Source: Podarcis liolepis (taxonomy: Eukaryota). From it: 64,000 nt of DNA. This document shows, piece after piece, positions 39 to 30,169 of this stretch. Position numbers and translations under genes: made by a program. The DNA is taken from NCBI GenBank assembly GCA_965112155.1, contig OZ218106.1; one strand, written 5' to 3'. The notes below the pieces were generated by a model. The model worked only from the letters and a program-made list of their open reading frames with translations. It made no database searches and had not been told where the DNA came from. Positions within the stretch are counted from its first letter, which is position 1; each line of letters starts with the position of its first letter.

Positions 39-276
39 TATTGTCTATGTCGACTGGTAGTAGTAGCTCACTAGGGCTTCAGGTGGGGAATCTTTCCCAA
101 CCCTACCTGGAGATGCCAGGGTTTGAACCTGAAACCTTCTGAATGCAAAGTAGATGCTCTACCAGTGAGCTGCAGCAACTTTCCCTCCAGTGACGCCACT
201 CCCCACCTTGCTTTCCGTACATGGAACAAGCAGGAATTGCACCCCAAAATAAGTAAGCAATGGCAATTAAGCATAC

Positions 277-493
277 CTGACATCCGTCAAGATATCTTTT
301 TTAACCACTTTTCGAAAGCCGTAGTGGCCAGTCTTCAAATGCACTCTGTAGCTGATGTGATGAAAGGTCATTGTGCTTCCTTCAGCAAACTCGGATCCTA
401 GAAAATTGATTTTCTTCTTCCGTAGGTAACCTGCATCTTCGTCATCACATATGCTTACATGCTTTTCAATTTGTCTGATTCTTGATGAAAATG
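277..493 (-). CDS. ABCG2-like paralog, exon 2 equivalent (gene continues beyond the left edge)
   Basis: Encodes ...AEGSTMTFHHISYRVHLKTGHYGFRKVVKKDILTDV, homologous to [33 protein letters not shown] at 29892-30073. Phase-2 donor AG|GTATGC at the homologous position; acceptor tcaccag| at 494. Confidence 0.85.
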
Positions 494-896
494 CTGGTGA
501 TGGCAATAAACAAATGAGTGATCAGAAAAGTCACTGTAGGTTTGTAACAAACGAGGAACCAGTAGCAACAGGTAGCAGAAGTATATCGTGAGCCCAATTC
601 TAATCTAACACCACCAGCAATAAAAATTTTACGAAGGCAATTTAAAGGAAACAAAATGAGGGCAGGGCATCCAAGTTTTCTAAATTAATTTTCTGTTACA
701 CTCTCTATTTGCGTGAGCTGTGGGGATTTCCAAGGGCACCGGTTATCAGGGTTTGGCTTCCTCTGATAGAGAGGGCTTATGGTGTTTCTGTAATATTTGT
801 TTAACTTAAGAAACACTGCCCCATCAGATCCCTAGAGAGGTGTTCCATCATCTTATGCCTTTCAGCCTTCTGGTAGCTGTCTGCCTCTCTATCTTG

Positions 897-1056
897 GCCT
901 ATGTTCACACCATACATTTAAAGCACCTGACTTTCCCCAAATAACTGCAGTTTGTTAAGCATGCTGGGAACTGTAGCTATGTGAGATGGTAAACTACAGC
1001 TCCCATAATTATTTGGGGGCAGTCATGTGCTTTAAATGTATGGTGTATATGCAGCC
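897..1056. mobile_element. Palindromic MITE, possibly PIF/Harbinger type
   Basis: Inverted ends caccatacatttaaagcac / gtgctttaaatgtatggtg; related copy near 56684-56850. Confidence 0.6.
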
Positions 1057-2410
1057 TCTGTCTCAAAAATGAAGTTGTCTCTTACAAACAACTTAAGATC
1101 CAGCTGTGCTTGGGGAGTGGGTGGGAGTGTGTCAATGTCCCTGAGCTCTCTTGGATTTCTCCATTCAGAATATTCTAGGGAATCTTCCAGTTATTTATGA
1201 GTGTCCAGCTGATGCACAACTGTACACACAAACATCATGCCGAACCAGAAGTGAATTTAATAATTGCAAAAACGGCTCTAGAAGAGCCCAGAAATGGGGG
1301 AAAGGAGTGAAAACAGCGCCTATCTATCCCAGGAGCCTTGTAAGAGGAATCCTAGGAGCCCTTGCGCTGACCATTGAGGCCTGTGGAGTTTGAGAAGGTT
1401 TGTAGGGAACAATTGTGGTGGAGTTTGGCATTGGGTAAGCACTGCTGGCTTTTTAAAGGGTTTACAGAGGTTTCAAGGGTGTGTTTGCAGGTTTTTCCAT
1501 GGTGCTTCAAATATACACAATTTCACTGGCGCGTACAGTGCCTCGAAACATAACCCCTGTGTAAATTAGTTTTGTATTTGGGAAAATATAGTTCTTCCTA
1601 CAGGCACAGAATTCATTGCTATTATCATTGCTCTGTGGACTATGGCTGCATGGATATCATGAGCACCTGCTGAATCCTGTCAGCAATTTCTGCCCTCTGT
1701 ACAATCCTTTAATTTTATTCTTTTAAATTCTTTAGGGAGCTATGTACTTCCCACTTCACAACGCCCACACAGGAATGCACATTTACCCAGATCTTTAAAA
1801 TGATGGCTAAAGGAAATAACTAGGTTGCCCATTTATCCCACAGCAAAGCTGGCACCAGTGTGCAAAACACCCATTTCCATTTTGCAACTGTGTTCCCCTC
1901 ATGCATTTAACAGAGAGAGAATGACAGGGATTTGGAGTAACAAATGCAACTTAAATTGTTTGTGTTTTGTTAGCCAATTTATGTACTCTGGAATAGAAAC
2001 ATTTTGACAAAATAAACAACCCGAGCCAGTTGTAGCTATTAAAAATACAAAATAAGAACCGAAAAAGACCTGTGCAACCAGTCACCACAGAGCACCTCCT
2101 AAAGGCACACCCTTGACAGCATCACCCTAAGTGCACAATTATTTGGGGCGTAGTTATGAGAAAATACATACATATATAATTGTCTCTCCCTCTGAGGTGA
2201 GCATGTGTTTTTAGGAAATATCTTACATGCAAATGATCTTATTGCACACTGCCACTATAGTTTTAATGCATCGGCAGTTTATAAATAGTCTTAGTTTTAG
2301 TTTTTAAAGCTACAACGAGCAGAGAAGGGTCATGGTTAGAATTTATGCCCCCCCTCCCTTATTTTTTTTCTTCAAACACCAGAGCCCTTCTTCTGCCCAC
2401 CCACCCCAAG

Positions 2411-2617
2411 CAGTGACGGAGCTTCATGCTCCAGCACCGGGGGGGGGGGGGGGGAGGCGGAGAGCGGGGGGGGGCTGGCCGGCCGCAGGGGCGTGGCGCG
2501 CATCTTGGGGGCGTGGTGCCCAGCGCAGGGGGGGGGCAACTGCGATGGCACCCTGCTGGGATCACGCTGTCAGGGGTGGTGCGCTCCCCCCCCCGCACTC
2601 CTCTTCCTCCGCCAGTG
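2411..2617. mobile_element. G-rich non-autonomous hAT element
   Basis: Imperfect TIRs cagtgacggag / ctccgccagtg; perfect 8-bp TSD accccaag (2403-2410, 2618-2625). Confidence 0.8.
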
Positions 2618-3479
2618 ACCCCAAGTTCTGGATTCAGGGTGCATGTAGCATCCCCAAACCAAAACATCTGAATGTTTTATTCAGTGCTTTTTTCCCTTTA
2701 AAAATGTTTAGGGATACTCTCATTTTGCTACTCACATTGAAATACTGCCCCTCAATGAGGCCAAGCAAAACATTCACAAAATGTTTAGGGGTATGCCCCA
2801 TCATTATGTTTTTTATGTGCTGGAAAGCCACCCAGAGTGACTGGGGCAACACAGTGAGATGGGCAAGGTATTATACCCATCACCATCATCAGGCCTAGAG
2901 GCATTTCAGAGCCACTGAACCTGCCTTGCCCCACCCTCCAGTCTCTGCTTCTCAATTTGTATTGTATTCTTTTATGCACTGTGGCTTGCTGTTGTTTTAT
3001 CGATTGTAGTTTAGAAACTATTGTACTTCTTAAGTGGATTTCTGTTAATTTTTATATGCTGATATTTAATATTATTCTATATTATTTGATGCAGGTTGCG
3101 TATTTTAACGTTATGTTTTATTGTCACGTTTTTGTATTGCATTAGATTGTTATAAGGTATACATTCTTTGTTTCTTCAGCTTGTAAACCGCCTAGGGTAT
3201 TGTAAGATAGAAAGACGGTATACAAATTAAAAGTGGTGGTGGTGATGATGATGATGAACGAGATTTGGAAATTCAACCCATTTTGAAGAGCGCCCTTTTT
3301 TCCTGAGGGATTCCACCCAACCCCAACCCCACCCCTCATGAAGATTCACTCCCCACCCCTCAAAACCACGGGATTACTAGAGGGCAGCCTCCCCTCAACT
3401 CACACACTTCCCCTCTTTTTCAAAACCTTTTCCAGCCACACCCTCCGTCCCTTTTGTTTTGTTTTGTTACCCATTCATG

Positions 3480-3750
3480 AAGGCGCCGGGGCGGGCGAAG
3501 TGCCGCGCATGCGCTAGCAGCAGTCCCTCCACTCCGACGGGCCGAAGGGGGCCCAGGTGAGCGCCTCGGCAGGTGAAGGCGGGAGAAAGAGAGAGCGCGC
3601 GCGCTGAGGTCCCGCTCCGGCTTCTTCTTCTCCCTTCCCCATCTCACCGCAAGCCAGGAAATAACGGCTCCGCCGGGGACGTTCCATCGCGGCCCATTCG
3701 CCCTCCCTCCACCGCGCGGCGGGGGTGGCGTGTGTGGCCCGAGCGTGGGA
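3480..3750. promoter_or_regulatory. CpG-island promoter, probably of the ABCG2-like paralog
   Basis: Dense CpG; NRF1-type palindrome GCGCATGCGC near 3505-3514; GC box ggggcgggcg near 3488; consensus splice donors on both strands. Confidence 0.7.
3648..3687 (-). CDS. Candidate first coding exon of the ABCG2-like paralog (MERPRRSRYFLAC, phase 1)
   Basis: gccgcgATGG Kozak context; 40 nt to donor GCG|GTGAGA; splices in frame (G|CA = Ala) onto exon 277-493. Confidence 0.6.
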
Positions 3751-4321
3751 GGAGGCAAAATGGGGGGGGGGACAAAAATAGACGTCATGGTCGGGGGGAT
3801 TAAGCTAGGATTTATGTTGGGGGGGGGGCAAGCTTCATGTTGTGGGTTGGGTGGGCAGAATCTCAATTAAGTTTTTTTTTAATTGATTGGGAGGCAGCCC
3901 CTCCCCCTTGGCTACACCAATGGGAGGGGGGGGCTCCTGTTTCTGGGTTACATGGGCTGCCCCCGCCCCCATGGGACAAGGTGAGGCGACAGGATCCCCA
4001 GGGTCAGCAGGATCTTTTTACAGTGGTACGTCAGGTTGCAGTTCATGAACCCAAGTCATCACCATTTGCTTTTCTAGACGGTTTAAATATGTCAATGACC
4101 CCTCTGGCTGTACAAATGAATATTCTTTCTTATGTGTCCATCTCTGAAAGAGCAAATCCAAGCGCTGGAAACACAGACCATTGTCCACGTAAGCTGTGGG
4201 AAGGAGCACTCACTGGCCGTTTGCAACAACGGGAGAGTTTTCTCGTGGGGAGCTGGAGCTTTTGGACAGCCGGGCACTGGAGAATTAAAAGAGCGTCTGA
4301 TTCCAAAGTAAGCAGCAAAAA

Positions 4322-4541
4322 CAGTGGTACCTCGGGTTACAGACGCTTCAGGTTACAGACTCCGCTAACCCAGAAATATTGCTTCAGGTTAAGAACTTTT
4401 CTTCAGGATGAGAACAGAAATCGTGCTCCGGCGGCACAGCGGGAGGCCCCATTAGCTAAAGTGGTACCTCAGGTTAAGAACAGTTTCAGGTTAAGAATGG
4501 ACCTCCAGAACAAATTAAGTTCTTAACCCGAGGTACCACTG
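4322..4541. mobile_element. Tc1/mariner (Tigger-like) MITE
   Basis: TIRs cagtggtacctcgggtta / taacccgaggtaccactg; multi-copy family in this window. Confidence 0.85.
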
Positions 4542-4551
4542 TGTTTTCTGC

Positions 4552-4768
4552 ATTTATATCCCCACCATTTTTCTCCATGCAGCTCCAAGGGGACTTGCCT
4601 AGTTCTCCTGCCCCTCATTTAATCCCCACAACGACCCTGTGAGGCAGGCTAGGCTGAGAGGTAGTGGATTAGCCCTCAAGGTCAGCTTCAAGGTTGAGTG
4701 GGGAATCGAACCTTCGTCTCCAAGGTCCAAGTTCAATTCTCTAACCACTGCACCACCACTGGCTCTCC
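4552..4768 (-). mobile_element. tRNA-derived core (MIR-like, Squam3-type) SINE, decayed
   Basis: cacaacgaccctgtgaggcagg core; reverse B-box ggaatcgaacc; ends ctggctctccc. Confidence 0.65.
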
Positions 4769-5059
4769 CTCCTTCTTTGTTTCTGGTTTAGATTTTCACT
4801 CATCCTTTCTTCTCCCGTGGTCAGGGAGGTAGTATTTTGTGGTTTGCCTCAGGCACCAAAATGGCTTGTGCCAGCTCTGCCCACCCCACCCCCCGTGCAT
4901 TGTTCTTTTTCACAATTAACATAATTAGTTATTATTTATTGAGTTTATTTTATCCGAAAGGAGGAAAGATCAAAATAATATGATATCCAGCAGTGTTGAT
5001 TAGGTATGTTACTGCAGCATTAATAAAAATGTGTTCTGTTTGCTCTCACAGTACATAAA

Positions 5060-5290: not shown

Positions 5291-6613
5291 TATCTATATC
5301 TTTATTTATCTATCTATCCATGCTAAACCAAGGACAAAATCAGTCAGCACATAGAAGCTAACACTACAAGACAACCTCCAGTCAGGCTTACATGGTGGTG
5401 ACTGCTCTTTAAATGGTACTTCAAAATGTGGCAAACCCAACCTGGTGCTTTTTGGTAGTACTCTTGCTCATTTTGATGAGTAGGAAGCCCTGAACTTCCA
5501 CTCAAATGGCCAGAGCTTACAGCACCACTGTTTTAGGGAGCAGCAGTTTGCACTCATTCACTGGTCTTCATTTGGTGGGTCAGGACCAGCTACTGGGTCA
5601 TACATAGCCTGATCCAAGGTGGGTCGCAACAGGAGCACTTACCACCATATATGGTTTAAGATTAAAAAATGGGTCCCCAAACGTATGTATGTGTCTGAAA
5701 AGGCTGAAGCCAAAACACATTCACTGCATCTGATATTATTTGTTTGTTTATTTTCAGGGTACCTACAGAAACAAAATGCTGTACAAGTGTAAGATGACAG
5801 TCTGCCCTTGTTCCCTAAGGCCCACACTCATCAGTAAGAATATCAGCACACAGCAGAGATGAAAGTAGATTGAGGGTGAGTTGAAGTGATAAAGCTGTAA
5901 GCCATTCAGGGTCCAACTCAGCTCATGAGGTTCTGCCGCCTAACCTAAACTCAAAATGGGGCAAAGAGGCTACATAACAGAAAGGAAACATTTAAAAATT
6001 TTTTTAAAAAATCATTAACCATAATACTGGGTATCTGTAACCGATTGCACTTCAAGGAACACGATCCTTTTCATAAAGTGTATAATAAGCAGTTATTTTT
6101 CAACTATTTAGTTACAATTCGTATGCAAAACTTTCCCATTCATAGGATGCCCTAAATAAAAGCATTTCTAAATTAAATTTGAGATATGCTAATTTCTTGA
6201 CTAGCTCCTATTTGGGGCGGGGGGGGGGGAGAGAAAGAAGATATTTCACAAACTACATGCAATGAAATAATAGCTTGAATTCTGATTTAAATGAAAGTGG
6301 GCAAACTGATTCCAAACACTGTGGATGGGAAGCCATGGGGGGGGGGGCGTAACCTGCAGTGATGAAAATAAGGAGCATCCTTTGTCCCAGCTCCCTGCCC
6401 CACTTAATCTCTACACACATTCACCCCATCTCCCAAAGCTGCTTTTCTTTTTTAAAAAATGAAGCAAACCTTGTTGAGATCCTAGTATATGCTGCTTTGC
6501 GTATCTGATACACTGGCTTAACAGGTTTTCACATGACACTCTAGCACCACGTTCAATAAACGCATGAAGTCCTCCACTCTGAAGTCAATGTTTTGTGCAG
6601 TGTCTGAAAAGGA

Positions 6614-13100: not shown

Positions 13101-16100
13101 CTCTTAATATGTTTTGAACTTGTTTTAATATTGCGTTTTTAAATTGCAACCTGCCCTGGGACCTTATGGTGAAGGGCGGGTAAGAAAGATGATTCTTGAA
13201 ATAAATAAATAAAATAAGCAAATAAATAAGGCAAATAATAATAATAATATACAGTGTTGCCTGTTCAGCAGTGTTCTACTTACATGAATATCTTCTTCTC
13301 CACAACAAAAAGCTCAATAGCGGAAATGCTGCTGAAACACTGGTTGGTGGTCATAAAGAACATAGCACCAATTCTATGGGGAGGAAATACGGATTGTCAC
13401 CATAAAGCCTTTGAAAAAATATTTGATATTCACAACAAGGATCCTCTTTCCTCCCCGAAACCCACTTTTTTAGCAAGCTCATCCTTGGACGATCCCATGT
13501 TCTCATCTTCACCACTGCCTCACCCACTGGGAAAAGAGCTATAAGGTCCATTTCTGGTAGAAAACAGGCATTTACAGTGTATGCCCTTGAGCAGCTGCCA
13601 ATTTATGTTAAAGATACTAGCCCCTTGGGAGGTGAGTGGAGGCAGAATGGGAGGGGACAGTACCCAGGCCCAGACAGAGGGGAGGGGCCATATGGGCCAC
13701 TTGGCCCGGGCCTCCGATTCCAAAGGGGGCCTTGGAATATTCACAATTCAGCATATTCACAATTGCAGGGGATGCACTGGGACAAACACGGAGGTGCAGC
13801 AGCGGTGGGCGGATTCCCTGGGGCCATGGCTGGCATAGAATCATAGAGTTGGAAGAGACCACAAGGGCCATCGAGTCCAACCCCCTGCCAAGCAGGAAAC
13901 ACCATCAGAGCACTCCTGACATATGGTTGTCAAGCCTCTGCTTAAAGACCTCCAAAGTAGGAGACTCCACCACACTCCTTGGCAGCAAATTCCACTGTCG
14001 AACAGCTCTTACTGTCAGGAAGTTCTTCCTAATGTTTAGGTGGAATCTTCTTTCTTGTAGTTTGGATCCATTGCTCCGTGTCCGCTTCTCTGGAGCAGCA
14101 GAAAACAACCTTTCTCCCTCCTCTATGTGACATCCTTTTATATATTTGAACATGGCTATCATATCACCCCTTAACCTCCTCTTCTCCAGGCTAAACATGC
14201 CCAGCTCCCTTAGCCGTTCCTCATAAGGCATCGTTTCCAGGCCTTTGACTATTTTGGTTGCCCTCCTCTGGACACGTTCCAGTTTGTCAGTGTCCTTCTT
14301 GAACTGTGGTGCCCAGAACTGGACACAGTACTCCAGGTGAGGTCTGACAAGAGCAGTATACAGTGGCACTATTACTTCCCTTGATCTAGATGCTATACTC
14401 CTATTGATGAGGCCCAGAATTGCATTGGCTTTTTTAGCTGCCGTGTCACACTGTTGGCTCATGTCAAGTTTGTGGTCAACCAAGACTCCTAGATCCTTTT
14501 CACATGTACTGCTCTCAAGCCAGGTGTCACCCATCTTGTATTTGTGCCTCTCATTTTTTTTGCCCAAGTGCAATACTTTACATTTCTCCCTGTTAAAATT
14601 CATCTTGTTTGTTTTGGCCCAGTTCTCTAATCTGTCAAGGTCGTTTTGAAGTGTGATCCTGTCCTCTGGGGTGTTAGCCACCCCTCCCAGTTTGGTGTCA
14701 TCTGCAAATTTGATCAGGATGCCCTTGAGTCCATCATCCAAGTCGTTGATAAAGATGTTGAATAAGACCGGGCCCAAGAGAAAAGCTTCCCTGTCCTGCG
14801 ATCGGCTCCACAGAGGAGTACGGAACGGGCCCCGGTTGGGTGGAGGCTACCAAGGCTCCAAGCAGCCAGCGTGATGGTGGACCATGTTTTTCATGCTATT
14901 AAAAGTTGGTGGGGTTTTTTTTAAAAAAAAAATCTTGTTTGCCAAACATTAAAACCACACGTACCTTAAAGATAAGTGTGTTGGCTTTCTTATCGCTAAA
15001 AGTTCTTTTGAAAATTATGAAAAATTGATGAAGATGTGGCCATTTGTTTAAAATTTTGTTGACTAGGCCTGGAATCCTTTCCCCAATGTATTTTTAAAAA
15101 GCACTACAGTGGTACCTCGGGTTAAATTCTTAATTCTTTCCGGAGGTCCGTTCTTAACCTGAAACTGTTCTTAACCTGAGGTACCACTTTGGCTAATGGG
15201 GCCTCCTGCTGCCGCGCCGCCGGAGCACGATTTCTGTTCTCATCCTGAAGCAAAGTTCTTAACCTGAGGTACTATTTCAGGGTTAGCAGAGTCTGTAACC
15301 TGAAGCGTATGTAACCCGAGGTAGCACTGTCTTGTATATCTATATTTTCCATTTTGTCTTTATATGCAGATACAGCTCAAGCCTTGAAATAACATTATTT
15401 GTCAGCATAACTTTTGTGAAAATTATTTATATACTTATTTATAAGACTTCAGTTATCCCCAGGGTAAAAAAGGGGGGGGCACATTATCTACCTGGCCCAG
15501 GCCTCTGCCTGGCTCTGCAAGGCGCTGCCAGTACCCTACAAATTGTGGGGGAAGGAGCTGTCATCGCCTGGTTTTACAAGATGGAACGCTAAGATACTGG
15601 CTGGTTAGCAGTTCTATCCAGTTAAAGAATAAAAGAGATGTATAAAGTCCAAGCAGAAGCTAGTATTTGTTTTACAGGCTGTGTTTTTCAATTGACAGGA
15701 GCTAAATTTCAAGCTTCAAAATGGGAGGCATCAATGCTTCTGAATGCTTCCAATTGCAGGAAACCACAGGAAGGGAGAATGGACTCTTGGGCTCAGATTC
15801 TGCTTGCTGGTTTCCCACAGGCGACTGTGGTGCTGGTATGAGATGGGCCATGGGCCTGATCCAGCCTGATCTTCTTATCTTCTTAAGAAGTCTGAAGATT
15901 TCTCTAGAATCAAAAACTGCCACCATTTTCTCATCACACAGCCACCGGATTCCTCACCTGTTCTGCAAACCAGTGGTATCATTCGTTACCCGAAAGAATA
16001 TGGCACCTACGACTGCCGCCAGGAAAACGGTAACACAGAGCTGAAACATAAACGAAATATACAGCAGTGTTATATCGCATACAGTCGAGTGCAAAAATCA

Positions 16101-22100: not shown

Positions 22101-25100
22101 ATCATTTGACAGCATCAGGTCCAATTCCTGCACCAACTCCAGGCTCGCACAGAGATTTATGCCTACTTATGCCCCTGCTAGCATGAGTGACAGGGGTCTG
22201 GATGCAGTGGTAGCTCGGCAAAACTTCACTGCTGCCTGGGCAGGGTTTGAGCTTCCTTGTCAGGCTGGTTTGAAACCAGCTCTTTGTTGCTCTGATCTAT
22301 AAATAATAACAGTTATTTATAGAATCATGGAACTGCAGAGCTGGAAGCGACCATGAGGGTCTAGTCCAACCCCCTGCTATGCAGGAATCTTTCGCCCAGT
22401 GTGGGGCTCTAACCCACGACCCTGAGATTAAGGGTCTTATGCTCTGTCGGATTGTAGGTGCTGAGACTTCACCGTGTGTCAGTACCAGTGGGAGGTAGGC
22501 GGTACGTTGAATGCACACGGATGCACAGCTGAATGCCGTAATCTGCACAACAGATGGGTATGATCTCTGAATAGATTGTTGTGCTGGCACCGGCACTATA
22601 CAAACCAGTGGTCTCTGTATGGTATCGTACAGGAGCGATTTCTCTATGGCAAAGCTAATCAACGCAGAATGACTCTAACAAAGAAACTGTGTTTTGCACA
22701 CCTATTTCAATTTCACCCGTCTTGTTTGAAGCCACAGCCGTCGAGTCTCCATTAATGACATCCAGAAAGAAGTCAGCAGGGTTGTTGTACGGTTCGCACT
22801 CATAACCTACAAAGAAATAAAAGGCTTGCAGGTCTTTCAATAAGCAGGTGGTGAAAATGTATTGCAAAGTACTTGGGGTCGTGTATTCAAAATCTTCAGA
22901 TTTGTTCCCAGCCCCCAAATTGTCTCCAGATTATCAAACAGCCTGCAGCCGTCCATGCTTTGGTAACTTCAAGACTAGGCCATTGTAATAAATACATCCA
23001 CCCGCTCCCCTGTAGCAAAGCCAAATTGAGCTGACTTTAACAAAACAACAACGGGGAGATATGCTCACATATAGCAGTCCCCACTATGTTCAGTAGAGAG
23101 TCTTCTGAAACCTTACCACTGGATTTGAAAAATTCTATGGCATTCTGAGCTGGTCCATGATAAAGCATCCTTCCTGCTGCCAGTAAGGTCAATTTATCAA
23201 ACAGTCGGAATATGGAGTAGCGAGGTTGGTGGATGGAAAAGATGATTGTTTTCCCTTGCCTGGCCATCCTGAACAGAGAAGGCAGTAAGAAAGGTGTCAA
23301 CCAGCTTAAGGTTTTGTAAAACATGGTGTTACTCATTCAAAATGTGCAAGCTAAAAAACCCCCTGCAATTTATCATAGGTCAAAATTCTCAACATACAGC
23401 TGTGCAAAGTGAAGAGACCACCTCTCTCTGTGCTGCCCCACCGCTTCTCTTCTCCATAGCCCAGTAGCTATGACTACTTGTATAATGGGCACTGAATTGA
23501 TGTTCTAGCTACCTGAGAAGCTGGTTTCACTCCCCGATTTGGCCCAGCAGATAGCTTCTGCCTTTTTTCCAGCTCTGCTCAGTGTTCAAAACTCCCATTG
23601 TTCTAGGCACATTTTGTGACAGGGAATTTCATGAGCACGAGCGGTTTCTGAGCTCTGGGTGCACTACTGCGCCTAAGATTTCAGATTAAAACTGCAGAGT
23701 GGAAGGAAAAGAGGACATTTTCCTGCCTCCCCACTTCCAGCTGCTCTCTGAAGGCTAAGAGACCCCTCTTAAGAATATTAGGGGAGTGGGCAGGGGAAGG
23801 ACTAGACCAGTGTTTCCCAAACTTTTTTGGGCAACGGCACACCTGTTTACTGAAAAAAAATCTCGCGGCACACCACCATTAAAGCCCCGCCCCGTGACGT
23901 CAGCGCGCAGCGTCACGCCGGGAGGGACGCACGAAAGTGAAAGTTTTTCCCCTCCCCCCTCAGTCCCTCGCTCGGAATTCAGCTCGTTTGGGGCATCGCT
24001 CCGGCTGCTCCCTCTCCCGCCGCGCAGGAGCGATGCCTCTCTCTGGCTCTTCCTCCGCGCAGGCTGAGGGAGGGAGGGAGGGGCGCGTGTGACCCGTCTC
24101 TGCTGGGAGACCAAACCCAGCGAGGCAGAGTCGCGCGGAGGCGCCCAGGCAGCGCTGCCGGCTGCGAGGAGGAGCGCCAGGCAGCAGCAGGAGGCGCGGC
24201 CTCTCCTCGCCGCCGCCGCCCCGCCTCTCGCCGACCGACTCGCCCGCCTCCCTCCAGGTATCTCGCGGCACACCAGCCGATGTCTCACGGCACACTCGTG
24301 TGCCGCGGAACACCGGTTGGGAAACACTGGACTAGACCATGTGAAAAATGGACATAATATTTTAGCTGCAGTTCATTCATTTTCAGCTTTGTATTCTTGT
24401 TATTAAAAAAGCATGCCTAGACATTCCGTTGTTGCGCCCATAACCTAGGTTTAAGGTGCCATTTTGCTCCTATCTCAGTTTCTAACACTGGATCTGCTGT
24501 ATGGCAAGCTAAACCTGGGAGTAGGCTGTCAGAAACGGCTTGGGAGTGGGGTTAGGGTTTTTAATATTGTTAGGTTGCTAATACTTCTTGAAGTGTGCCT
24601 GCTTCTGCACTTCCATAATACCTGCTCAACTGCATACCTGTGAAGGAAGAGATTATGAATGCATTGCACACCTCCAGGAAAATGAGACTTGTTAAAGGCT
24701 GGCTACAATTCCCCAATGTCTGGTGAGCCGCAGAAAAAAAAGGGACCTAGTCCATTCTTTCAGCAGCTACACAGTTTGCATTTATTATCACCGTACTTTC
24801 CCCTTTTGTCTTGTTATGAGGCTGGGAGTATTGTAAGTCCCATCAAAGAACTATTCAAAGAAAAAAATCAAGTGCTGTTACTGCACTTCAAGATTGATTC
24901 TCTGAAAAACACTAAACCTATTTAACCTCGTTTATTTACTGTACGGTATATGACTTTCCCCCAAAGTACCTCTGGAAAGCACAGATGGGTTCCCCTAGCT
25001 CAACAAAAACCTGTGAGTTGGGGCAGGCTCACAGGGAGTGACTGACCCAAATTCACCATGTAAGTCTAACCAGTTTGGGTCTCGATTATCTAGGGAGAAT

Positions 25101-28077: not shown

Positions 28078-30073
28078 GAGGTGTACGGAGAAGAAAAGAA
28101 TCCCCATTATTTTAGCCGGAGTCATTCTGCCGGCTTCTGCTAGCAGAACAGAGTAGATGAATCCAGCCCTGTGTGTTGGACATAACTTGCAGTTTGTTCA
28201 CACAGATGTCTTGACTCAGTTTATAGACTGCTCTGCTCCTCTGTCTGCCTCTGTCAAGACCATAATAGCATAATCAGCATCGTTTAGCTAGTCCCACTGA
28301 GAAACGTAACTGAGGACATGCTCACAACATTATACCAGAATTGCAGGAAAGAGGCTGATCCTCCAGCAAAATTATTTTAGACCAGACTATGAACCCCTTC
28401 TGGGCTTCAATATATGAAGCCATGTTTTCTGCCTGGAGGGCTTTCTTTTAGTCAAGGGTAGGAATTGGAGCCAAGTTAACATGTAGCTGCTTTAGCTCAC
28501 TGCCACAAAACTTACGAAGACTTGCCACAGCCGGTTGGCCCCAGGATTGCGTTCAGTCCAGGCCGCATTATACCGCTGCAATACAAAACCAGCACATTTC
28601 TTGTGAGTTGTTTCGCCTTCAGTACATTGCATCTATTGGTCAAACTCAAGCTACAGACTGATTCGAAGCCTGGGTTTGAAAAGGCTGAAAGCCTTAAAAA
28701 GTGCATCCATACAATGGTCTCAAAAATGCCCCTGCGAGTTAACATTACAGCGGCAATCTGGACAAGCTGTCCTTCAAGATAGCATACATACATACTTTAT
28801 AATTATTATTACAGTTGTATTGCACCTTTACTTCAAGGAGCACAATGTGGTATAATTAAGTTCTCTCCCTCCAGCTGTGCCTCCGGTCTTTTCAAGGCTT
28901 CCTCTGTCCTCACTGAAGTACTCTTCGGGCTCCACAAGGACTCTCCAGTGCTCTGCTGCCAATTCCAAGTCTGAATCGATTTATTTATTCCCAGCACTGC
29001 ATACGTATGTGGTCATGCGCGAGTCAATCACACGCATGTTGTGGGGGGGATGCCTAGAGTTAATCCAGCACTGATCGCAGATCCATGGGGCATCCCTGAA
29101 ACTTACAAATCAACCCTATGGGTCCCTAGGGTTAATAGCGACTGCTTTCATAACACATTATTTCAGTTTATCTAAGGGCAAGCTACCAAATATTCCGTAG
29201 GGTGTGGTCCCCTGTTACCTTTCACACAGGGAACAATATAATTCGGTTAATTATTCATAGTCATATTACTGTCTGTTCTCATGTAGCATTGAACTTCACA
29301 GTCAATTACGCACCATTTGCAACCACCGCCGTGTTTGCTTGATCAATTTTTGTTCCCGACACAGGTCAATAAGCGAGCATTGGCAGATTTCCACAGCGGT
29401 GGCTGCCATTTTAGATCCAGCAATTCCCACAGAAAGTTTGCCACGCCATCTTAGGCAGAAGATCTGTTAGCACTGCCATCACGTACCTGCCAAAGGGCCA
29501 CCCTTCCTCCACCTATGCTTTCTAAGGCAAAAATTGTCCACTGAAAGGGCTTTGGATAGTGCAATGAACTCTGAAACCGTTTCAGTCTCCTCTTCCTAAC
29601 TTATATCACCCAAGTTCTCAGTGGATTTCGCAGGGTCTGGTCTTCGCTGACGCTAGGCCAGCAGATAAGGAACTTGGGTGTGGCTGGTTTATCAGAATAT
29701 TTGACACCCATCCTTCATGAACTCAGGCACTGCCCTTGATCTGTAATATGGGGATAATAATACTGGCCTACAAAACAGGGCTGTTGTAAGGATTACTAAG
29801 ATAATGTAGGAGAAACACAGGGGACCCTCTCAAAGTATACACACACATACATATGGAAAGTGAGTGCACATTCAGGCTGAGAAATACGTACTTGATGTCT
29901 CTCAAAATGTCTTTCTCAACTGTTTTTCGGCAACCTATGAAGCCAGACTTTGTCTTCACTCTGTACCAGATGTTGTGAAAAGTGACTGTGCTGGCTTTCA
30001 TCTGCTTCTTGCCTGGGATGCCGTTTGTACTGGTCTCGGACATGGGGATGCCAACTTGTGGGTTCTGAGCCAT
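7375..30073 (-). CDS. ABCG2: ABCG2 (BCRP) half transporter, complete spliced CDS of 15 exons, about 652 aa
   Basis: Walker [11 protein letters not shown]-loop GYVVQDD, signature ISGGERKR, Walker B/D-loop [12 protein letters not shown]-switch SIHQPR, NPADFF motif and TM domain. Exons sum to 1959 nt with the frame intact; adjacent to PPM1K as in human. Confidence 0.95.
7662..8007 (-). mobile_element. Sauria SINE
   Basis: Reverse complement of the family body seen at 37163; ggtaaa tail; tRNA B-box gggattcgaacc. Confidence 0.9.
9099..9199 (-). CDS. ABCG2: ABCG2 exon 15 (extracellular loop 3)
   Basis: [33 protein letters not shown]; acceptor ttcaaag|, donor AT|GTAAGT; 101 nt. Confidence 0.9.
9652..9805 (+). 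mobile_element. tRNA-Lys-derived SINE with a CR1-like 3' tail
   Basis: A box agctcaatcggtag, B box gggttcaagccc, tail ttccaactct...gattctatgattcta shared with CR1. Confidence 0.75.
10082..10121. repeat. (CTAT)n microsatellite
   Basis: About 10 tandem CTAT units. Confidence 0.95.
10247..10336 (-). CDS. ABCG2: ABCG2 exon 14
   Basis: [30 protein letters not shown]; 90 nt; ctgcag| and |GTAAGT. Confidence 0.95.
10610..10823. mobile_element. Tc1/mariner (Tigger-like) MITE, variant subfamily
   Basis: TA-flanked cattggtacctcgg ... cgaggtaccactg. Confidence 0.8.
11422..11576 (-). CDS. ABCG2: ABCG2 exon 13
   Basis: [51 protein letters not shown]; 155 nt; |GTGAGT donor. Confidence 0.95.
12305..12429 (-). 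CDS. ABCG2: ABCG2 exon 12
   Basis: [41 protein letters not shown]; 125 nt; Arg482 equivalent present. Confidence 0.95.
13284..13373 (-). CDS. ABCG2: ABCG2 exon 11
   Basis: [29 protein letters not shown]; 90 nt; ccatag| and |GTAAGT. Confidence 0.95.
13834..14777 (-). mobile_element. CR1 LINE, 5'-truncated, with an open 290-aa reverse-transcriptase C-terminal frame
   Basis: [13 protein letters not shown]...KFADDTKL...[19 protein letters not shown]; attctatg-type tail at 13834. Confidence 0.97.
15107..15329. mobile_element. Tc1/mariner (Tigger-like) MITE
   Basis: TIRs cagtggtacctcgggtta / taacccgaggtagcactg; opposite orientation to the copies at 4322 and 19371. Confidence 0.85.
15958..16040 (-). 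CDS. ABCG2: ABCG2 exon 10 (TM1)
   Basis: [28 protein letters not shown]; 83 nt; tttcag| and |GTGAGG. Confidence 0.95.
16887..17269. mobile_element. Tigger-like MITE interrupted by a hAT MITE
   Basis: Family body matches 15107; 3' terminal repeat resumes after 17246. Confidence 0.75.
17114..17246. mobile_element. hAT (Blackjack-like) MITE
   Basis: TIRs taaggataccaga / tctggtaacctta; perfect 8-bp TSD gtttgtaa. Confidence 0.8.
19065..19202. mobile_element. Palindromic hAT (Charlie-like) MITE
   Basis: Fold-back structure; perfect 8-bp TSD ccctaagg; near-identical copy at 60860. Confidence 0.9.
19371..19596. mobile_element. Tc1/mariner (Tigger-like) MITE
   Basis: TA-flanked TIRs cagtggtacctcaggtta / taacctgaggtaccagtg. 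Confidence 0.85.
19816..19940. mobile_element. hAT MITE
   Basis: TIRs cagggcttttt / aaaatagcactg; TSD cacctaca / cgcctaca; related inverted copy near 12036-12165. Confidence 0.7.
20463..20704 (-). CDS. ABCG2: ABCG2 exon 9
   Basis: [21 protein letters not shown]...[25 protein letters not shown]; 242 nt; ctccaaag| and |GTAATA. Confidence 0.93.
20815..21156 (+). mobile_element. Sauria SINE
   Basis: tRNA head ggttcgaatccc, family body, (accttt)n tail, flanking tatatgac repeat. Confidence 0.9.
21193..21234 (-). CDS. Candidate 42-nt in-frame cassette exon of ABCG2 between exons 8 and 9 ([14 protein letters not shown])
   Basis: Acceptor ctcttcctgtgtccgtttcattcaaacag|, donor ATG|GTATGA, phase 1-1 matching both flanking exons, no stop. 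Confidence 0.5.
21265..21605 (-). mobile_element. Old CR1 LINE fragments
   Basis: Decayed [16 protein letters not shown]...QCKMAAK resembling the young CR1 at 13834; CR1-type 3' UTR. Confidence 0.65.
21653..21777. mobile_element. Palindromic hAT MITE
   Basis: gtggtggccaaactc / gagtttggccaccac inverted ends; ggactacaactcccatcatccct core. Confidence 0.8.
22319..22447 (-). mobile_element. tRNA-Lys-derived SINE with CR1-like tail
   Basis: Reverse complement of the element at 9652; further copies near 27689-27810 and 37666-37782. Confidence 0.7.
22702..22806 (-). CDS. ABCG2: ABCG2 exon 8
   Basis: [34 protein letters not shown]; acceptor ttgtag|; donor AG|GTGTGC (alternative at 22717). Confidence 0.9.
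   Translation of the reverse strand, partial: VMSANRTTTLLTSFWMSLMETRRLWLQTRRVKLK
23117..23268 (-). CDS. ABCG2: ABCG2 exon 7
   Basis: [50 protein letters not shown]; 152 nt. Confidence 0.95.
23808..24329. mobile_element. Young CpG-rich non-autonomous hAT (Charlie-like) element
   Basis: TIRs cagtgtttcccaa / ttgggaaacactg; perfect 8-bp TSD gactagac; repeated subterminal cggcacac motifs. Confidence 0.92.
25454..25521. repeat. (GTAT)n(AAAT)n compound microsatellite at the tail of an L2-like LINE fragment
   Basis: About 12 GTAT units then AAAT units, following ggccgctcagagtggctgggg. Confidence 0.9.
25587..26003 (-). mobile_element. Possible solo LTR
   Basis: TG...CA ends and minus-strand AATAAA near 25670; TSD not convincing. 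Confidence 0.35.
26111..26268 (-). CDS. ABCG2: ABCG2 exon 6 (signature, Walker B)
   Basis: [53 protein letters not shown]; 158 nt. Confidence 0.97.
26330..26780 (-). mobile_element. Decayed L1/Tx1-like LINE 3' end
   Basis: ILLNNIP...[30 protein letters not shown] resembles the ORF2 C-terminus; contains a stop. Confidence 0.55.
26836..26988 (-). CDS. ABCG2: ABCG2 exon 5
   Basis: [51 protein letters not shown]; 153 nt. Confidence 0.96.
27221..27335 (-). CDS. ABCG2: ABCG2 exon 4
   Basis: [38 protein letters not shown]; 115 nt. Confidence 0.96.
28040..28075. repeat. (GT)n microsatellite
   Basis: About 18 GT units. Confidence 0.95.
28516..28575 (-). CDS. ABCG2: ABCG2 exon 3 (Walker A)
   Basis: [20 protein letters not shown]; 60 nt; ttgcag| and |GTAAGT. 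Confidence 0.96.
29892..30073 (-). CDS. ABCG2: ABCG2 exon 2, coding part (exon begins at 30094)
   Basis: [20 protein letters not shown]...[30 protein letters not shown]; aagATGG start 21 nt after acceptor ttcacag|; donor AA|GTACGT. Confidence 0.94.
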
Positions 30074-30169
30074 CTTTCCGGAGGTGCTTTATCCCTGTGA
30101 ACCACAAGATGAACACAGACAATATAAGCAACAAAATTCAGGTGGCTCCAAGGTGCCCCTCATTAACAG

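Follow-up and report, generated by a model that had tools for sequence, protein, structure and literature searches.

Where does translation start in a gene that has lost its start codon and kept its reading frame? This question is raised by a paralog of ABCG2 in the lizard Podarcis liolepis, the 5′ part of which lies in the stretch of DNA analyzed here (64,000 nt, hereafter the window; positions 15996001–16060000 of contig OZ218106.1, with which 400 kb of flanking DNA was taken in). Human ABCG2, or BCRP, joins several alternative first exons of its 5′ untranslated region (UTR) to one exon-2 acceptor and has its start in exon 2, according to the available part of PMC3777471. In contrast, the start of the lizard paralog appears to lie in exon 1. 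We propose with good confidence that this paralog, in which the old start now reads ATC, splices a first exon ending in ATG-G (at 3471) to exon 2, that it is likely translated from this ATG (at 3474) with a gain of six residues (MAFSSR), and that the shift likely took place on the lacertid stem.

An Intact ABCG2 Paralog

The paralog, which lies on the minus strand, runs ∼18.4 kb past the end of the window. Modeled from ATG 3474, it comprises 665 codons and, like human ABCG2, 16 exons, with every intron GT-AG and zero internal stops. An intact frame with GT-AG introns throughout led us to reject pseudogene status. Residues 36 to 665 align as one stretch to the solved human ABCG2 chains (phmmer, E 6e-272), and the layout of a half-transporter, in which an N-terminal nucleotide-binding domain is followed by a six-helix membrane domain, is present at full length. 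PF00005, PF19055, and PF01061 are found in orthologs of the paralog. The ATP-binding motifs kept in human ABCG2 are also kept here: Walker A, Q-loop, VSGGERKR signature, Walker B, and H-loop are all complete in the Podarcis protein P0007, from which the window model differs at 10 positions, none of them within these motifs. By its sequence, the paralog is an intact ABCG2-subfamily half-transporter gene, with a product predicted to be an ATP-driven ABCG-type exporter.

The same gene appears in RefSeq as "ABCG2-like" in P. muralis (XP_028599418, -419, -421, and -422) and P. raffonei (XP_053260077-079), and also corresponds to CAI5784686.1 of P. lilfordi and XP_060134421 of Zootoca vivipara, all being 93 to 99% identical. 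The window model itself shares 98.3 to 98.8% identity with three Podarcis "ABCG2-like" proteins, 93% with the Zootoca protein, and 62% with the main ABCG2 protein encoded next to it. The RefSeq records consist of protein models; where the lost ATG lay, when it was lost, and how the isoforms rank are new here.

Contig Evidence for a Probable Start Codon in Exon 1

Exon 2 of the paralog (277–493, 217 nt) is separated by a GT-AG intron of 2977 nt (494–3470, from a contig joint and the gene model) from a CpG island (3401–3800; GC 0.61–0.67, CpG observed/expected 0.85–0.89) that holds two first-exon donors. In the proximal first exon, ATG plus G (3471–3474, minus strand) precedes the donor GTAACA in phase 1, and the joined frame opens MAFSSRIRQ. 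In the distal first exon, the coding part (3648–3687, minus strand) is MERPRRSRYFLAC plus G before the donor GTGAGA, as in XP_028599418, XP_028599421, and XP_053260077. An earlier examination of the letters alone, here called the sequence-only reading, had described these elements, namely gccgcgATGG at 3687 running 40 nt (13 codons plus 1 nt) to GCG/GTGAGA at 3648, ATGG/GTAACA at 3471, and the acceptor at 493, and all are present on the minus strand. As it also stated, the 3648>493 join is in frame, and it translates to MERPRRSRYFLACAFSSRIRQIEKHVSI...

Which donor is used? We compared the contigs of eight of the 13 listed runs (X1, X3, X4, X5, X6, X7, X10, and X12), those called RNA-type being of guessed RNA origin; region 100–5000 was compared with four RNA-type runs and region 3270–4315 with X3, X5, X10, and X12. 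Of the two junctions that had been suggested as a check, 3471>493 was found in two of the four RNA-type runs. This joint, which skips 2977 nt and has GT-AG ends, lies in unbroken contigs of 4211 nt in X1 (depth 107.3) and 1829 nt in X4 (depth 78.5). In the X1 contig, 69 bases precede exon 2, a 6-nt insertion included, and as far as this contig reaches, the proximal first exon spans 3471–3533 on the minus strand, the upper coordinate being an estimate. No 3648>493 joint is among those listed for the four RNA-type runs over 100–5000, and X3, X5, X10, and X12 show neither joints nor a listed loose end at 3648 over 3270–4315. Position 3648 is covered by two RNA-type pieces only, both unspliced and of low depth (X6, 3563–3722, depth 3; X5, 3557–3692, depth 2.9, with adapters at both ends), and either may derive from DNA or from unspliced transcripts. 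The lack of a first-exon piece in X3 and of a first-exon junction in X5, X6, and X7 was counted neither way. Since contigs drop rare forms, the 3648 isoform may exist as a minor form, which is the likely status of transcripts with the distal first exon.

Protein models point in the same direction. An N-terminus beginning with MAF (664 to 665 residues) occurs in models of P. muralis, P. raffonei, P. lilfordi, and Zootoca. The MERPRR N-terminus (677 residues) is found only in RefSeq isoforms of P. muralis and P. raffonei and is absent from both Zootoca models and the P. lilfordi model. The same two species have RefSeq isoforms of 623 residues that begin with MTFHH at the first in-frame ATG of exon 2 (369–371, minus strand), and all three N-termini are thus already in RefSeq annotation. 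An older Zootoca model has MQPSAF at its N-terminus, perhaps through extension into the intron. The sequence-only reading had preferred the donor at 3648 and called that at 3471 the weaker one; the contig junction falls at 3471, and MAF is what Podarcis and Zootoca models have in common. The new N-terminus is also smaller than had been thought, as the supported form takes from exon 1 an ATG and a single base.

Both ATGs (3474 and 3687) and both donors are without listed change in genomic-depth contigs of two further relatives, X10 (both substitutions listed, elsewhere; indels partly listed) and X12 (12 of 13 substitutions and all 21 gap letters listed). X12 does carry a C13R change (3651) in the long N-terminal extension. 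How much weight should the agreement of frames carry? The chance expectation had been put at 1 in 3, which is too low. We shuffled 3900–3400 by dinucleotides 1000 times and counted as a donor any GT with 3 or more of 7 consensus matches. One or more donors preceded by an open in-frame ATG were present in 77% of the shuffles and two or more in 49%, and in the real sequence three of five donors have such an ATG. The ATG-donor arrangement alone is not beyond chance. Because the shuffle rate is high, support rests on the contigs and orthologs, not on frame agreement.

Loss of the Ancestral Start Codon

We located the old start by its distance from the GPTG motif, because the main lacertid protein is shorter in its N-terminal region and matching by distance from the acceptor misleads. 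Met stands 79 residues before GPTG in Rhineura, Paroedura, Sphaerodactylus, Hemicordylus, Phrynosoma (where it is internal), and both sloth proteins, while Podarcis has Ile. This residue is Ile7, encoded by ATC at 477–479 (minus strand), 14 nt into exon 2, opposite an ungapped Met in orthologs. The Rhineura start MKQFEKHLNI aligns without gaps to Podarcis IRQIEKHVSI, and in the 655-residue human chain, where query residue 36 is aligned to chain residue 30, human Met1 extrapolates to Ile7. The first 14 nt of exon 2 would be former 5′ UTR, now encoding AFSSR. The sequence-only reading had instead counted from the acceptor. The main gene does have its ATG 21 nt past the acceptor of exon 2 at 30094 (exon 2, 29892–30094, minus strand), and in the paralog an ATT is present 23 nt after the acceptor (468–470, minus strand; Ile10), with the first in-frame exon-2 ATG at 371 (STMTF). 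That this ATT is the relic of the start was rejected, since it aligns with Met in snake orthologs only, whereas ATC 479–477 aligns ungapped with the Rhineura Met. The core of the earlier proposal, that the exon-2 start was lost, that a first exon supplies the ATG, and that former 5′ UTR is now coding, is borne out by the contig junction, the models, and the ortholog alignment.

Outgroups (Rhineura, the two geckos, Hemicordylus, and Phrynosoma) have Met where lacertids have Ile or Leu, Leu being encoded at the old start site in Zootoca, and a replacement in-frame ATG, 3474, lies on a transcript spliced 3471>493 in a relative. Rhineura is sister to the lacertid rows in a quick tree (Shimodaira–Hasegawa-like approximate likelihood ratio test [SH-aLRT] 99). 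The loss of the start codon is thus probably to be placed after the amphisbaenian split and before Podarcis and Zootoca parted. Rhineura has three accessions for one identical protein, as is expected of alternative non-coding first exons.

How might this have happened? The last four bases of a non-coding first exon could have contained an ATG that was by chance in frame with exon 2 over a stop-free 14-nt leader. Once ATG 3474 had taken over initiation, the old ATG would have been redundant and free to become ATC, or a Leu codon in Zootoca. On this scheme, ATG 3687 would have two roles: when the 3648 donor is used, it would be the start of a minor isoform 12 residues longer, and when this donor is skipped and 3471 is used, it would open an upstream open reading frame (uORF) of 57 codons that ends at 3514 (3514–3687, minus strand).

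Start-codon turnover and alternative first exons that give N-terminal proteoforms are a general mechanism. The lizard paralog resembles other cases of turnover, in which a lost start is made good by an in-frame ATG farther upstream and a short UTR turns coding. Nor is it alone in the family. Starts lie four residues earlier in iguanians, three later in some snakes, and three earlier in bovids, and models of Hemicordylus and Anolis have optional upstream extensions; such variety across lineages indicates that the paralog N-terminus is labile. Unlike in these parallel shifts, the new ATG of the lizard paralog is in a different exon, and its second codon is split by an intron. Of the contrast with canonical ABCG2 that had been drawn before, the part about a human start in exon 2 stands, but the change is not unique, the start having shifted in several paralog lineages. 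With its N-termini already in RefSeq and similar shifts in iguanians and snakes, the start-codon shift is an ordinary event.

Alternative Starts

Several observations weigh against initiation at ATG 3474 on the 3471>493 transcript. This ATG has a middling context (T at −3, G at +4), and two weak ATGs lie just upstream: 3510, which opens an 11-codon in-frame uORF (3475–3510, minus strand) whose TGA abuts ATG 3474, and the out-of-frame 3478, which overlaps this TGA. Given the weak −3 base and the two upstream ATGs, initiation at 3474 may leak, and some leak to ATG 371 is plausible. Both competing ATGs are better placed in this respect, 371 having A at −3 and being the start of the 623-residue RefSeq forms, and 3687 having a better context and a donor nearer consensus. 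The joint itself comes from X1 and X4, which are of one study, of one relative (six differences in 217 nt), and of guessed RNA origin, and X3, the third run of that study, gave no first-exon piece. The differences tabulated for the runs over 100–5000 and for X3, X5, X10, and X12 over 3270–4315 are partly listed, with 3 substitution and 27 indel rows outside in the latter set. The ortholog N-termini are automated models in which "exon 2" is assigned by alignment, and, no paralog N-terminus from Lacerta or any teiid having been found, the dating sets Rhineura against two lacertid genera.

Could ATG 3687 give the main product, with the 3648 donor and the N-terminus MERPRRSRYFLACAFSS, as the sequence-only reading preferred? 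Its context is strong (G at −3 and +4), the donor matches 4 of 7 consensus positions, MERPRR isoforms are known in two Podarcis species, and the ATG and frame are without listed break in contigs of two relatives. We nevertheless consider this improbable: the contigs of X1 and X4 pass across 3471>493 without a break, the joints listed include none at 3648>493, RNA-type coverage of 3648 is unspliced (the X6 and X5 pieces above), the MERPRR form has no counterpart in the Zootoca and P. lilfordi models, C13R falls in the long extension of one relative, and a comparable ATG-donor pair turns up in most shuffles, at the rate given above. A role of the RPRRSR stretch of this long isoform in endoplasmic reticulum retention was considered and dropped, since CpG-rich DNA is expected to encode Arg-rich peptides.

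It is just as doubtful that the first exons are effectively non-coding and that the protein starts at ATG 371 (MTFHH), with the loss of 36 ancestral residues. Besides the A at −3 and the 623-residue isoforms of two Podarcis species, this reading has in its favor that the equivalent Met is the annotated start in orthologs of Eublepharis, Sceloporus, Euleptes, Tiliqua, and Notechis. Against it, four out-of-frame ATGs precede 371 within exon 2, and the reading frame ahead of 371 is open and aligns clearly among Podarcis, Zootoca, and Rhineura, with an indel of one codon in Zootoca, which points to coding constraint. The weakest alternative, that ATC (or ATT 470) still initiates at the old site as a near-cognate codon one base off ATG, a kind of initiation known in general, and hardly alters the N-terminus, is very unlikely given an in-frame ATG 18 nt upstream on the spliced RNA and a Leu, not Ile, codon in Zootoca. 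We infer that ribosomes use ATG 3474 for most of the product, and the six extra residues, which lie ahead of the nucleotide-binding domain, likely matter little.

Position in the ABCG2 Family and Loss of F439

How old is the paralog? In quick trees (SH-aLRT without bootstrap; seven rows, fused models and redundant isoforms, were left out of one), it belongs to a clade of crocodilian, turtle, tuatara, and squamate proteins (SH-aLRT 100), separate from canonical ABCG2. The neighboring main gene falls with the ABCG2 of birds and turtles. Among the rows sampled (the best 120 of 1099 hits plus an earlier set), the paralog clade took in none from birds or mammals. A recent lacertid duplication was rejected on the basis of these trees and the 62% identity to the main protein. 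In the accessible part of Ma et al. 2020 (PMC7362505), the painted turtle Chrysemys has two adjacent ABCG2-family genes in the neighborhood of bird ABCG2, and birds have a separate "ABCG2-like" gene on chromosome 6; squamates, start codons, and F439 were not found treated in that part. Turtle proteins share the clade of the paralog. Bird proteins of the Pavo/Phaethon type, which we take as the chromosome-6 gene, lie outside it, and identity with that gene is thus unsupported. We found no paper on an ABCG2 paralog in lizards, in a search that left subscription journals mostly outside.

Protein searches turned up no separate Lacerta paralog model (in one search, among the best 120 of 1099 hits). 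The Lacerta agilis RefSeq isoform XP_033016508.1 is the main ABCG2 up to transmembrane helix 5 (TM5) followed by the last three exons of the paralog. This chimera reflects either read-through splicing between tandem genes or an annotation merge.

Stacking on F439 has been called imperative for all human ABCG2 ligands (PMC12250437 and PMC11957596, in the parts available). We compared 210 distinct proteins of 400 to 800 residues, of which 105 are paralog-like and 105 are other; a fused model and records above this length were omitted, and isoforms were retained, which makes the rows non-independent. Residue numbers are those of the aligned human chain. Opposite F439, Leu occurs in 81 paralog-like proteins, Met in 20, a gap in 3, and Phe in 1, and this lone Phe belongs to the chimeric Lacerta model, in which TM2 derives from the main gene. 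All 105 other proteins have Phe here. At the T542 position, the paralog-like proteins have Asn (100), Ser (3), a gap (1), or Thr (1), and the others Thr (101), Ser (2), Asn (1), or a gap (1). Compared with human ABCG2, the Podarcis paralog has F439 replaced by Leu (Leu445, in place of the canonical clamp residue), S440 by Asn, T542 by Asn, and M549 by Ile. Asn at S440 is also seen in squamate and crocodilian rows, and Val at C438 in snakes and Rhineura. Paralog residues 445, 446, and 548 are encoded by exons past the left end of the window.

A changed substrate range of the paralog may be inferred from these replacements. With F439 changed to Leu or Met and T542 to Asn, it could be an exporter re-tuned to other substrates, probably of a less flat or less aromatic class (reptile excretory compounds or lipids), and a second ABCG2 kept since the reptile stem; we hold this combined view tentatively, at somewhat less than even odds.

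Surroundings of the Gene

The locus reads as lying between PKD2 and HERC genes, names that follow from domain and position: PKD_channel exons lie ∼10 kb past the 3′ end of the paralog, and RCC1-repeat (HERC-like) exons ∼97 and ∼190 kb off on the other side, beyond the main gene. One intron of the main ABCG2 gene contains a long open frame at 13908–14846 (minus strand), which we presume to resemble the C-terminal part of a long interspersed nuclear element reverse transcriptase. A main-gene intron also holds a CpG-rich stretch at 23941–24500 (GC 0.61, observed/expected 0.89).

Close to the first exons of the paralog, an element at 4020–4542 (plus strand) contains a copy of an RCC1-repeat exon (∼4149–4307). 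Its parent is the HERC-like gene 97 kb away, from which one exon and its intron flanks match at 92% over 515 nt. A common inverted-repeat element is found at 4321–4542, and an extra repeat end, which the parent lacks, at 4020–4037; with repeat ends at both places, the whole piece is bounded by inverted repeats. It resembles a transposon that captured an exon, and its left edge is crossed by contigs of three relatives. The element is not the source of a first exon. Capture of a first exon or promoter from a HERC or PPM1K gene was rejected, since 3380–3870 has no second genome copy other than short matches to query 408–491, and the HERC-like piece, a copy of 500 bp at 4040–4543, misses both first exons.

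In X1, X3, and X4, all from one study, contigs span the stretch from 3883 or 3933 to 4308 and extend further; the continuation in X3 matches 5762–5781 behind an AG acceptor, the join being 3883–4307 to 5758 onward on the plus strand. This joint likely represents a spliced transcript that leaves the CpG island of the paralog by way of the donor of the captured exon, its strand being deduced from the splice sites. As the frame of the captured exon stops soon after the join, this divergent transcript is likely non-coding.

Significance

The start shift itself matters little, since it adds six residues to a variable tail, but it offers a clean, datable case of a UTR that would have become coding. 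For annotators, the 665-residue MAF form is better supported than the longest form of 677 residues. The choice of donor in exon 1 may also tune output in lacertids, if it decides whether ATG 3687 begins an arginine-rich N-terminal extension or a repressive uORF of 57 codons. On residue comparisons, the gene deserves attention more for its clade-wide replacement of F439 than for its start codon. If its substrate range has indeed changed, the paralog would put to a natural test the idea that no ligand can do without F439, and, having kept its ATPase machinery intact without F439 across non-avian reptiles, it could reveal a reptile-specific transport function.

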